Origin: an uncultured Armatimonadetes bacterium
Lineage (GTDB): Bacteria; Armatimonadota; Hebobacteria; Hebobacterales; Hebobacteraceae
Length of the DNA stretch: 64,000 bases
Assembly (NCBI GenBank): GCA_963716175.1
Contig: OY970296.1
Coordinates: forward strand, 1,952,001 to 2,016,000
Direction of reading: 5' to 3'
Below the pieces are notes generated by a model. It was given only the letters and a program-made list of their open reading frames with translations. It was not told the DNA's origin and searched no databases. The stretch's first letter is position 1; each line of letters opens with the position of its first letter. Made by a program: the position numbers and the translations under genes. Below, piece by piece: positions 870 to 10,081 of the stretch.

Positions 870-1078
870 GAACGCCCACCTGCTGCGCCACACCTTCATG
901 CGCCTCTGGCGCATTCGCCACCCACGCCCTGCGCGCCCGGCCCAACCTGCGGGCGGTGCAGGAACTGCTGGGCCACGCCTGGGTGACCACGACCCAGCGC
1001 TACACTCACCTGGAGGTAGAGGACCTGCAGGCACAGCTGGCCGATCTCCCGGCCAACCGCTTACCGGGCGTCGGCTGA
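870..1078 (+). pseudogene. C-terminal remnant of a XerC/D-like tyrosine recombinase
   Basis: [38 protein letters not shown] (HxxR, LLGH, catalytic Y) after removing a 19-bp insert at 898-916; N-terminus absent. Confidence 0.85.
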
Positions 1079-1137
1079 ATCCATACGACGCACTATGGGC
1101 CCAATTCATCAGCCGAGCAGCGCGTCTGACTCATGGG

Positions 1138-7472: not shown

Positions 7473-8351
7473 CTAGTGCACCGGGGTGCCCCACCTCGCC
7501 TTGTAGACATGCTCTCCCGCCCAGTTGACTACCCGATCGGGTTGCATGAGAAGCACTCGTTCAGCCCACCACTTCTCACCCCCCCCTTGGACATAGGCTA
7601 TCTGGCCAGTCACCGGGTTGGTCGAGATGCTGTTCACATGGCCGGTTTCTCTGAGCTGCGGATGCAGTTTGAAACTCCGCTTATCCCGGTCAAAGAGCCA
7701 GCAGTGACTGCCGGTCGTCACGGTCATCAGCGGGCTGTCTGGCACCGGATACAGGTCATGCCCTCCGCCTTCAGGGAGATCCACTATGAAGAACATCGCG
7801 AGCGAGGGATTACCTGAGTCCCAGTCTACCAGCCGGTAGGCCCTGATGTCGCGGTGCGCAAGTGCCCATAGGACTCCCCGGGCTTCATCCCATACAACCC
7901 CGTGTCCCTCGGGTAGTGCCGTGCTGAACAGCTCTTTCTCGGAGGTATTGGCATCGTAGATGATGAGCTGGTCGCAGTTCCGCGGTGGCCCGCTGCCCTC
8001 GTGACCCGAAGTGGCCACGGCCACCCGGCCTCCAGGCAGCAGGTCTGCCGAGTGGGCGTTCTCGGCCACAGCCCAGAAGGATGCTCTGCCCGTTCCTCGC
8101 TCCACCAGCGCCACGCCGGAACCTGAGGATGTGATGAGTATCCACTTCCCCCCGCCCAACGGCTTGCATTCGTCGGTGCTAGCGAACTGCCATTGCTTGA
8201 GTTCCGCGGGCAGTTCAGGGCAGTCCTTGGCCCGCCATCTCCACATCTTCTTTGGCTTCCCGTTCTCTTCCCGGGGAAGGTCGAGAATGTACACCTCATC
8301 CCCGCCGCACACTATCAGCTCCTGGGATGCTGCCGCTGTCTGGCCTCCCAC
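7473..8351 (-). CDS. DUF6528-like beta-propeller protein, 5'-truncated by IS3
   Basis: STDECKP, ENAHSADLLPGG, GHGVVWD, GGHDL, VYKARW motifs; frame runs into the IS IRL at 8352. Confidence 0.75.
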   Translation of the reverse strand: MGGQTAAASQELIVCGGDEVYILDLPREENGKPKKMWRWRAKDCPELPAELKQWQFASTDECKPLGGGKWILITSSGSGVALVERGTGRASFWAVAENAHSADLLPGGRVAVATSGHEGSGPPRNCDQLIIYDANTSEKELFSTALPEGHGVVWDEARGVLWALAHRDIRAYRLVDWDSGNPSLAMFFIVDLPEGGGHDLYPVPDSPLMTVTTGSHCWLFDRDKRSFKLHPQLRETGHVNSISTNPVTGQIAYVQGGGEKWWAERVLLMQPDRVVNWAGEHVYKARWGTPVH

Positions 8352-10081
8352 TGTACGTCGTCAGCGATTCTGGGACAAAGGCCAAGCTACAGGGTGAGCT
8401 GATCTGAGTCGGTGTTCCTGCTCCTGGGCGGCGAAATGTACAAGCGAGAAAGGAGCAGGGAGATGGAGGAATCGCTGAGGGCCGATGGCAGTGAGGGGCT
8501 AGAGCAACCGGTGGTGAGCCCGGGGCCGGCTCGCAAGCGAGGGGAGACCCCGCGGCAGCAGATGCTACTCTGCGAAGTAGCTTCGCTACGTAGCACGAGT
8601 CCGGAAGGCCAAGGGTGTCACCCGTCGGCACTTCACCGCCGAGGACAAGATCCGGATCGTGATGGAGGGCATCCAAGGGGAGATCCCGGTCTCGGAGCTG
8701 TGCCGGCGGGAGCGGCTGCACACCACGGTCTATTACCGCTGGCTCAAGGACTTCCTGGAGGGGGGCAAGAAGCGGCTGCGAGGGGATGTGCTGCGGGAGG
8801 CGGGTCGGGAGGAAGTGGCGGCGCTGAAAGAGGAGAATGCCCGGCTCAAGTGGCTAGGCGCAAGCGCCGCCATCCCGGTCCACAGGACCTAGGGACAGTT
8901 GGTGGCGGACTATGCCCTTGACCTGATGGCGCTCAAAAAAAGTCTGATGGCGGAGCGATGACCAAACAGCGCCGTCGGGAGATTGTGGAGCTGGTGGCCA
9001 AGTCACCCCATACGGTGGCGGCGACAGTGGCTGAGATCGGGGTCTCCAAGAGCAGCTTCTACCGCTGGCGCGCCCGGATTGAGTCCGGCTGGAGGCCCCG
9101 GCTGAAGAAGGCGGTCTGGAATGAGTTGCGCCCAGAGGAGCGCCAAATCGTGCTCCAGCAGGCTCTGGCGCAGCCCCACCTGAGCGCCCGGGAGCTGGCC
9201 TGGTGGCTCTGCGACCACGCCAATTTCAGCGTTTCTGAGTCCACCGTGGCGCGCCTCCTGAAGGCCCACGGGCTGCTGCCTAGGCGGGGCCCCGAGCAAG
9301 AGCCGGCCGGGAAGGAGTGGCGCCACAAGACCCGCCGCATCAACCAGATCTGGCAGAGCGACGCCACCCGCTTTTTCATCCCGGGCTGGGGCCACTACTG
9401 GCTGGTGTCGGTGCTCGACGATGGCTAGGCCTGCGGCCGCCATGGCGGTCACCCTCGGTGACCTAGCCACTACTCCCGGCGCCTGCTGGCCTGGGAACTG
9501 GTATCCGACATCCAGGCGGAGAGCCTGGTGGCGGTGATCCAGCGGGCAGTGGAAGTCACCGGGGTGACCGCAGCGCCCCTGGTGGAGCGGCCGGCGGTGC
9601 TCACCGACAATGGCTCAGGCTACATCGGCAAGGTGATGCAGAAGTACCTGAAGGCCCTGGACCTGCGCCATCTGCGAGCCCGCTCCCATCATCCCCAGAC
9701 CACCGGCAAGCTTGCCCGCCTCTGGCGGGATCGAGCGGGTGCACCGCACGCTGAAGGATGACGTGGAGCTGGTGGTGCGGATGAGCCCGGGCGAACTGCG
9801 GGCAGCGATCGCCCAGTTCGTGGCTTACTACAACTCCCAGCGCTACCACGAGGTTTACCCGCCTCTGGCGAGGCGCTGCACAACGTCACCCCGGACGACG
9901 TCTGGTTCGGCCGCAGGGAGGAGATTCTGGCCCGGCGAAGAGCGCTCCAGATCCGCACCGTGATCGCGCGCCGGGAACGCTACCGCCGGCTGAGGGGCCA
10001 GTGCAAGAATACAAGAGCGGGAACACCGGAGGTGTAGCTAACGCAAGACCCCTCTTGTCCCAGTCACGCTGACGCCGGACA
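8352..10081 (+). mobile_element. IS3-family element (inactivated)
   Basis: Terminal IRs TGTACGTCGTCAGCGATTCTGGGACAA / TTGTCCCAGTCACGCTGACGCCGGACA; orfA HTH, A7G slippery site at 8935-8942, orfB rve; no TSD seen. Confidence 0.9.
8463..10037 (+). pseudogene. IS3 transposase orfAB broken by five short palindromic insertions
   Basis: KIRIVMEG..ELCRRE..YYRW (orfA); WQSD, LTDNGS, GKIER DDE motifs; frames restored by removing 8564-8600, 8851-8895, 9422-9469, 9711-9729, 9853-9872. Confidence 0.9.

Follow-up and report, generated by a model that had tools for sequence, protein, structure and literature searches.

A 19-nucleotide tagged hairpin inserted into recombinase and transposase relics of an Armatimonadota genome and repeated in distant phyla

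How did three nearly alike hairpins of 19 or 20 nucleotides (nt) come to lie inside two dead mobile-element genes? The question is raised by a 64,000-nt stretch of an uncultured Armatimonadetes bacterium (hereafter the window; G000:C1:1952001-2016000, from G000, a single-contig genome of 4.56 Mb and 66% GC). A reading made from the sequence alone had pointed to three short inserts, one in a tyrosine recombinase relic and two in a transposase relic (units A, B and C in Table 1), and had proposed an ultra-short insertion unit too small to encode its own machinery. That proposal has stood up: the length is constant at 19 nt (20 in a form tagged TTTA), empty sites exist in paralogues and as a metagenome allele, and the unit occupies at least 13 distinct target contexts in G000. 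The inserts are very probably a discrete mobile or copied module. Our comparisons show that this module is copied or moved whole into new sites, with no fixed target duplication and with a weak site preference.

The sequences of the three inserts are exactly as they had been written down. They share the core CGCCTCTGGCG, which occurs three times in the window (0.23 expected; none of 100 shuffles reached three), while at one mismatch the core is at background level, with 7 found and 5.7 expected. A relaxed scan of the window gave no further copy of the unit. Taking the inserts out restores the reading frame and the family motif, as had been claimed, and the Pfam matches and translations of the flanking pieces agree on this. 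The translation of window 9528-9710 ends in ...HHPQTTGK and matches positions 66-102 of 102 in rve; window 9730-9852 begins with IERVHRTLK and matches positions 19-60 of 67 in rve_3; and the frame resumes in window 9873-10037, after unit C. In the recombinase relic, window 917-1075 matches Phage_integrase (137-169 of 172, E 1.7e-6).

Uninterrupted homologues lack the inserts, since empty paralogues were found in G000 for all three. The transposase paralogue near 2.828 Mb aligns over both sites with gaps of 19 and 20 nt. Among the recombinase paralogues, five lack the 19 nt and read ...CGCCACACC joined directly to TTCGCCACC...; in two others, at 2,102,643 and 2,113,934, the insert is present in identical form. 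An empty allele of the recombinase locus was identified in the X1 metagenome, where a contig of 329 nt (depth 3.6, six other differences) covers window 620-967 minus exactly the 19 nt of unit A. Because window 700-875 is unique in G000, we read this contig as the same locus in a close strain and not as a paralogue; the 31-mer graph behind contigs of this type would presumably not have allowed a join between the unique flank and a paralogue. Contigs of X2, X4 and X5 cover 897-916 without the deletion, and the contigs of four metagenome runs contained no empty allele of the two transposase inserts. Among the public records listed as containing the stretch there was no RNA data set. The TTC on either side of unit A means that it can also be written as 895-913.

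What is conserved is larger than the shared core. Counted genome-wide against a k-mer null, as the sequence-only reading had suggested, the bare 11-mer is in excess (56 copies, 20.5-24 expected under Markov orders 2-6, 18 for its mirror image), but about 20 of the 56 are chance, so that the 11-mer is a poor definition of the unit. The full plan is a 4-nt 5' tag followed by a hairpin with a 6-base-pair stem and a 3-nt loop, 19 nt in all. CTTG is the commonest tag, and TTCA, TTGA, TTTA and TTCG also occur. The inner four pairs of the stem are fixed as CGCC/GGCG, the two outer pairs vary yet remain complementary, and the loop reads TCN. Since the loop is TCN and the outer stem covaries, the conserved part is the tag with its hairpin rather than the 11-mer. 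A strict scan for NNNGCC-N3-GGCNNN hairpins with a YTT tag and a T-first loop found 58 copies in G000 against 3 in a mirror-image control search. Among 75 tagged hairpins the stems were GTCGCC (18), CCCGCC (16), TCCGCC (15) and TGCGCC (7), and the loops TCT (22), TCC (17), TCG (7) and TCA (4). The TTTA subfamily often has one extra base (GTTTA...), which accounts for the 20 nt of unit C. No Rfam family covers the unit. Six 15-mers taken from it occur in no relevant paper of the literature searched (the sole match was an unrelated ion-channel paper), and a search of the literature on very small mobile hairpins gave nothing closer than work on repetitive extragenic palindromes (REPs), on REP doublets forming hairpins (REPINs) and on small dispersed repeats (SDRs).

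For an empty-site test across G000, tag and hairpin were removed from each copy and the joined flanks were searched against the genome. An ungapped match across the junction was obtained for 33 of the 58 copies, four of which were self-overlaps. For the remaining 29, the segment removed was exactly 19 nt in 28 cases (22 in the register of a 4-nt tag plus 15 nt, six shifted by one) and 18 nt in one. We reconstructed nine filled/empty pairs by hand, and the numbers of bases repeated at the two flanks were 3, 3, 5, 3, 1, 1, 1, 1 and 1. These repeats have no constant register and are therefore not a target-site duplication. The junction letters noted earlier are present (TTC...TTC, GGCAAG followed by CTTGCC, and CGAGG...CGAGG), but they too are no target-site duplication, given repeats of 1-5 nt over the nine events. 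The suggestion that unit B begins with a fold-back copy of the adjacent GGCAAG has to be dropped: CTTGCC is the unit's own sequence, found at more than 100 other places, and here it stands beside a Gly-Lys codon pair.

The sites themselves show a weak preference. Over 171 distinct sites from G000 and other phyla, the flank profile has G at -1 (0.56), a purine at -3 and Y-T-G right after the hairpin, with T at the second base after the hairpin in 0.44 of sites. The downstream flank begins with (N)TT at 48 of the 171 sites against 16 in a control window, and the commonest 4-mer after the hairpin, TTGC, is found at eight. No fixed target motif was found in this set.

Table 1. Inserts and interrupted genes, in window positions
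Feature	Position	Strand	Description or basis	Placement	Comparison within G000
Unit A	898..916	+	19 nt, TTCA-TGCGCC-TCT-GGCGCA subfamily		Missing in five paralogues, identical in two others
Unit B	9711..9729	+	19 nt, CTTG-CCCGCC-TCT-GGCGGG	Between ...TTGK and IER... of the DDE transposase	Missing in paralogue at ~2,828,072; identical in fragment at 2,116,475
Unit C	9853..9872	+	20 nt, (G)TTTA-CCCGCC-TCT-GGCGAG, one stem mismatch	Between ...YHE and ALHN...	Missing in paralogue near 2.828 Mb; identical in copy at 4,551,417
Tyrosine recombinase C-terminal relic	871..1078	+	Phage_integrase match and paralogue alignment	Broken by unit A	Multi-copy gene
Decayed DDE (HTH + rve + rve_3) transposase gene, IS3/IS481-like	8958..10037	+	Pfam HTH_32, HTH_23, rve and rve_3 on separate frame pieces	Broken by units B and C and other small repeats	

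Other small elements lie close to these genes. Just upstream of the recombinase relic, window 165-256 (plus strand) contains a c-di-GMP-I-GGC riboswitch aptamer (RF03167, 74.1 bits, above the gathering score). Window 8563-8601 and 9420-9469 are other small repeats attributed to the same dead transposase. One repeat there is a 39-nt element with 100% identical copies elsewhere in G000 and very high depth in four metagenome runs, and it also adjoins a unit in a viral contig (L176). The second is a 48-nt twin-hairpin element (GGCTAGG...CCTAGCC). An X2 contig omits 9415-9469 and has five other letters instead.

The paralogues also bear on when the inserts arrived. The three filled recombinase copies differ mutually at 17-18 of 168 flank columns, as much as they do from the empty copies (13-23), yet unit A is identical (19/19) in all three. 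Units B and C also show no difference between copies with flanks that are 82.6% and 86.5% alike. By our own arithmetic, units changing at the rates of their flanks would have stayed as they were with a probability of about 0.05, 0.03 and 0.06 in the three cases. Together with the empty X1 allele, this identity implies that the inserts are younger than the paralogues, which they appear to have reached either through conversion of short tracts or through more than one insertion at a single site. For the TTCA-TGCGCC variant in the recombinase we favour conversion, because in G000 this variant is confined to the three recombinase copies and because the recombinase motif accompanies none of the 32 stretches (about 18 contexts) that carry it in metagenome contigs, a set in which a few are probably coding coincidences and from which the scan may omit records near G000.

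Where do the remaining copies in G000 sit? The classical REPs of this genome are GTAGGGCGGGCAT... (137 copies), GTTGGGCAGGAGCTTGCCTCCTGCCC (49) and GTAGGGCGGCCATGC... (44). True REPs here carry GTAG or GTTG, and units were found in the loops of three GTAG/GTTG REP classes; by eye, about 25 of the 58 units are in apical REP loops, as where CTTGC has become CTT[CAGTCGCCTCTGGCGACTT]GC. The site without its unit is a hairpin loop in 26 of 58 cases against 10% of random positions. Hairpin-loop targeting was not upheld as a general rule in the cross-phylum set (15 of 120). The two dead genes of the window account for further copies, and others stand in a heptamer-like repeat (directly after ...CCGCAGATTACGCAGA), in a small number of paralogous fragments or simply in intergenic DNA. 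Crude stop-to-stop open reading frames make up 72% of the genome and hold 11 of the 58 copies, several of them upstream of the likely start codon. Of two options offered before, that the unit targets mobile DNA or that it survives only in neutral DNA, the second fits this low count better, most copies being intergenic or lodged in other repeats, and there was no sign of a preference for mobile DNA. Copies persist solely in intergenic DNA, other repeats and dead genes because 19 nt shift the frame in coding DNA.

The 40 intergenic copies are distributed as 33 between co-directional, six between convergent and one between divergent genes, and we saw no bias in orientation to transcription in G000 (13 same, 20 opposite). 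A gene framed by units at 2,730,073 and 2,730,635 was considered as possibly unit-linked and rejected: it codes for an ordinary small membrane protein, and of the two units one is in the 5' leader and the other past the stop. At G000:C1:91,981-94,100, three units lie within about 2 kb, beside another recombinase relic and with two of them 37 nt apart on the same strand; unit-free counterparts of this stretch are near 2,232,647 and 2,236,035.

Related genomes were searched with the pattern CTTGNNCGCCTCNGGCGNN. Of 14 further genomes in the family of G000, 12 have it, as does one of 12 genomes of another family (f3). Across 151 sampled Armatimonadota genomes, 41 had any match, and counts above five were confined to the one family. 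A relative from another genus (G011) has 67 pattern matches against none for the mirror control. The 233 kb of G011 that we examined were picked for holding units and are hence a biased sample; in them, units sit in several host-specific repeats. The loop of one G011 REP (REP2) is either TT or CTTGGTCGCCTCCGGCGACTT, in 26 and 41 strand-instances respectively, a difference of 19 nt. The REPs flanking the single REP-associated tyrosine transposase (RAYT) gene of G011 are unit-free. The G011 matches are locally co-oriented (20 strand runs against about 34.5 expected for 67 matches, counted by hand), with a block of 11 plus-strand and then 11 minus-strand copies near 2.82-2.84 Mb; such strand clustering is absent in G000 (31 runs, 29.4 expected, z 0.42).

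The part that we find surprising is the identity of the unit across phyla. The exact 19-mer CTTGCCCGCCTCYGGCGGG occurs at no fewer than 123 places in named genome records of many phyla. Among the matches listed are Verrucomicrobia/Opitutaceae, Planctomycetota, Acidobacteriota, Desulfobacteria, Bacteroidota, Calditrichales, Synechococcus, several Patescibacteria groups and others. Fourteen matches are in viral contigs. Many lie in flanks of 29-50% GC inside long contigs, some in flanks of 29-38% GC. By our own estimate, the chance of one exact match in a 0.7 Mb genome of 38% GC is about 1e-7, and two AT-rich genomes of 0.7-0.8 Mb have three exact copies and one. In five unrelated genomes the family and its mirror control were counted at 123/0, 26/0, 20/1, 3/0 and 1/0, and the subfamilies that these genomes share with G000 are CTTG-CCCGCC, CTTG-TGCGCC-TCC and TTTA-CCCGCC-TCT. 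Part of the GC-rich matches have to be put down to chance or coding coincidence, an explanation that is impossible for the AT-rich and multi-copy cases.

In other phyla, whole units also stand head to tail, each hairpin being followed by CAAG or TAAA on the opposite strand, and arrays with a 36-nt period occur. In a genome of about 49% GC (G033), the unit lies near the 3' end of a composite repeat of about 100 nt in 18 of 18 copies, none of them empty. Such composite repeats and the REP loops show that a module held inside another repeat multiplies passively with its host.

Some of these arrays and neighbours deserve description in their own right. Two G034 loci (L150 ~1010-1140 and L151 ~1000-1125) are tandem arrays of 36-nt period in which a TTTA-CCCGCC-TCT unit alternates three or four times with a GC hairpin (GTCGCC-TTC-GGCGCC); they have no spacers and are therefore not CRISPR-like. 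The unit abuts or interrupts a tandem heptamer array at nine of 169 loci, compared with one and two loci for periods of 6 and 8. Units often stand between or beside tandem heptamers (such as ctggatg-unit-ctggatg and acagagg-unit-acagagg), as at L145, L147, L144, L194, L179, L180 and others, an association that recalls the short tandemly repeated heptamers of cyanobacteria. In an AT-rich genome of 0.7 Mb (G031), a unit at L155 ~505-560 caps a terminator-like stem flanked by A and T. At L157 ~474-661, a unit lies inside a stretch that is weakly T-box-leader-like (39.5 bits against a gathering score of 93).

What could move so small a piece? We suggest that the module moves as single-stranded DNA and that a nuclease-ligase acting in trans, specific for both structure and sequence, would make its cuts just 5' of the tag and at the 3' foot of the hairpin. 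The likeliest enzyme would be an HUH Y1 protein of the RAYT or IS200/IS605 kind, and the near-identity of units across phyla may then reflect the specificity of the enzyme together with horizontal spread. The whole explanation, a 19-nt module with single-strand mobilisation in trans, we judge to be probable, if narrowly so. The HUH Y1 type is favoured because a 5' tetranucleotide beside a hairpin is its known recognition logic; as an identification of the enzyme it remains rather doubtful to us.

On single-stranded REPs, TnpAREP cleaves to the 5' or the 3' side of the hairpin and joins the ends again, guided by the 5' tetranucleotide, and the Stenotrophomonas REP is 23 nt long, with GTAG, an 8-base-pair stem and a 3-nt loop (PMC8266576, in excerpt). 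The unit follows the same plan of a 4-nt tag, a perfect palindrome and a 3-nt loop. Like REPs in general, it has an unpaired 5' tag, a GC-rich palindrome with a short loop and compensatory, covarying changes in its stem, it is high-copy and mainly extragenic, and it is depleted in divergent intergenic regions. The REP tag is GT[AG]G, whereas that of the unit is YTTR, before a stem of six base pairs in a total of 19 nt. In a REPtron the tnpAREP gene is flanked by the repeats, whereas stand-alone units flank no RAYT gene. Each REP family is described as specific to its own tnpAREP (PMC6006769, in excerpt), and the unit is by contrast nearly identical across phyla. REPs can have variable self-complementary inner loops (PMC3733652, in excerpt). 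Unlike REPs, the unit inserts into REP loops and genes as a separate piece.

The unit resembles IS200/IS605 insertion sequences and their miniature derivatives in having no target duplication, a hairpin with an adjacent guide-like 5' tetranucleotide, and seamless empty sites. As outlined in part of PMC8266576, the two ends of an IS200/IS605 element carry different hairpins and insertion takes place next to a fixed tetra- or pentanucleotide, whereas the unit has one hairpin, 19 nt and a weak flank bias in place of a fixed target. Nor is it a miniature inverted-repeat transposable element, which would have terminal inverted repeats and a target-site duplication of fixed length: the flank repeats are of 1-5 nt, and 28 of 29 sites are restored without a leftover duplication.

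By analogy, the conceptually closest known system may be the SDRs of Nostocaceae, 'very small mobile repeated elements' that were reportedly defined by Elhai and colleagues in 2008. In the excerpts available of later papers, SDR5 is 21 nt long (PMC13756078), SDRs insert precisely into other sequence motifs (PMC4390886), and they are reported solely in Nostocaceae (PMC5861425). On these descriptions, SDRs and the unit are alike in being very short, in inserting precisely into other motifs and in having no known mobilising function; they differ in that SDRs are confined to Nostocaceae and the unit is found in many phyla, a comparison made on the descriptions in the citing papers. Another parallel exists in organelles. 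The GC clusters of yeast mitochondria are one example of mini-hairpins there. Repetitive hairpin-forming elements have been described from sponge mitochondria (PMC2800124, in excerpt). As far as that excerpt describes them, such elements share with the unit the character of GC-rich, non-coding mini-hairpins that invade intergenic regions and genes by no known mechanism, and they differ in being organellar, longer and of other sequence. To our knowledge, organelle hairpin elements show no identity of sequence across lineages to the degree seen in the unit.

Candidate enzymes were sought among the genes of G000 and its relatives. The suggested co-occurrence with RAYT/HUH or reverse-transcriptase genes singled out no partner; GIY-YIG, the third suggestion, is a domain that UvrC makes nearly universal. 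G000 has five Y1_Tnp (RAYT) genes, each flanked by GTAG/GTTG REPs, and Y1_Tnp genes are present in every unit-rich genome examined. Co-occurrence with RAYTs was nevertheless rejected as a pointer to the enzyme: it is not discriminating, no unit stands beside the 12 Y1 genes sampled in other phyla, and the comparison with those loci brought up no RAYT orthologue in common. IS91-type (Y2 HUH) elements target the tetranucleotides CTTG and GTTC. Mobilisation by this type was also rejected, as PF04986 was found in one of 31 relatives (G015 only) and not in G000, G011 or any of the 14 same-family genomes. A reverse-transcriptase origin was rejected for G000, in which PF00078 (RVT_1) gave no candidate; it matches in five of the other 14 genomes in the family. 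According to a portion of PMC6006769, no repeat partner or substrate is known for several Y1 HUH subclasses.

Two of the G000 RAYT loci are unusual in themselves. At L002 (G000:C1:3132006-3132575), the RAYT gene has a GTAG-type REP inside an unbroken open frame (190 amino acids, stop to stop), a trait described for TnpAY1 subclass 2.4 (PMC6006769, in excerpt). At L005 (G000:C1:4050579-4051285), the same 48-nt REP variant stands on both sides of the RAYT gene and its loop holds a CTTG-GTCGCC-TCG unit, an arrangement implying that a unit-bearing REP can be a working copy of a REPtron.

A number of observations weigh against single-strand mobilisation in trans, and no enzyme could be tied to the unit. 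At the RAYT loci of G000, units are found solely nested in REP loops (three of five loci). Of the 31 relatives, 27 have Y1_Tnp; all 12 genomes of family f3 are among them, and the unit turned up in a single one of these 12. G001, with five unit copies, has no Y1_Tnp match. No unit was seen within about 1.5 kb of any of 12 Y1 loci taken from other phyla, and nothing at those 12 loci exceeded 35% identity to the RAYTs of G000 and G011. The split of copies between replication strands, for which a bias would be a trait of IS200/IS605-type elements, is 32:26, with an irregular cumulative GC skew that makes the placement of origin and terminus uncertain. At the insertion sites there is a weak flank bias, whereas elements of the IS200/IS605 type insert beside a fixed tetranucleotide, and the 3-5 nt flank repeats at four of nine junctions suit a microhomology process as well as a nuclease. 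Finally, the empty recombinase allele of X1 is a single contig of depth 3.6.

The main rival is templated copying with gene conversion, which requires no enzyme of its own. A nascent strand would switch by microhomology to a unit-bearing locus, copy the unit and return, and short-tract conversion between paralogues would do the rest. Flank repeats of 1-5 nt occur at all nine reconstructed junctions, with 3 nt or more at four, but part of this apparent microhomology is the tag meeting T-rich flanks. The lack of a fixed duplication, of a strong target motif and of a linked gene would all be expected, and the recombinase case is well suited to such a route, as the rare TTCA-TGCGCC form stands at the same site in three diverged copies, nowhere else in G000, and in that context in none of the 32 metagenome stretches. 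Templated copying does not, however, predict constant boundaries, yet the same 19 nt were involved in 28 of 29 events and recur in unrelated phyla; the exact copies in AT-rich genomes of 0.7-0.8 Mb would require an incoming donor, and the head-to-tail arrays look like addition unit by unit. We therefore consider it unlikely as an account of the whole.

We regard it as less likely still that the hairpin is mainly a functional site under selection, either a protein-binding DNA hairpin or an RNA stem, and that the gene-breaking copies are rare accidents of recombination. A sequence conserved far more strictly than a selfish repeat requires, in subfamilies that recur from phylum to phylum, would suit a function, as would the avoidance of divergent (promoter) intergenic regions (1 of 40, as in REPs), the copy on a terminator-like stem in an AT-rich genome and the copy in a T-box-leader-like stretch below the Rfam gathering score. 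A site function would not be expected of copies in dead genes, other repeats and tandem arrays, nor would function lead one to expect precise 19-nt differences between presence and absence. The absence of a gene-orientation bias in G000 (13 to 20), the lack of an Rfam family match and a patchy taxonomy, with high counts in one Armatimonadota family only, also speak against it. That the units are footprints of a larger transposon's excision, or assembly artefacts, is most improbable: footprints can be short and palindromic, and hairpins can trouble assemblers (public contigs do break at units, as in an X1 record spanning exactly 9729-9855), but the units share no flanking duplication or terminal-repeat register, stack head to tail and have covarying stems as footprints should not, are found in contigs of three further runs that cover 897-916 without the deletion, and occur in more than 100 independent assemblies from different assemblers and in one cultured isolate record.

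With single-strand mobilisation in trans as our preferred explanation, a broader proposal can be put forward, tentatively and as possible rather than probable. The unit may be a pan-bacterial 'nano-transposon', one conserved module moved by one horizontally spreading single-strand DNA nuclease-ligase, for instance an orphan Y1 HUH subclass whose genes lack flanking substrates, and serving as a building block of lineage-specific REP variants, composite repeats and tandem arrays in Armatimonadota, Verrucomicrobiota, Planctomycetota and Patescibacteria. For annotation, a 19-nt insert of tag and hairpin is a sign of a frameshifted pseudogene and a cause of breaks in short-read assemblies; taking it out restores the frame for homology searches. 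If the explanation is true, the origin of the variable inner hairpins in REP loops would be explained, and the unit would be a concrete substrate with which to seek a single-strand DNA enzyme, several Y1 HUH subclasses being without a known substrate in the part of PMC6006769 that treats them. Bacterial mobile DNA would then reach down to a unit of 19 bases, one of the smallest mobile DNA units seen, which is recognisably alike in very distant phyla.

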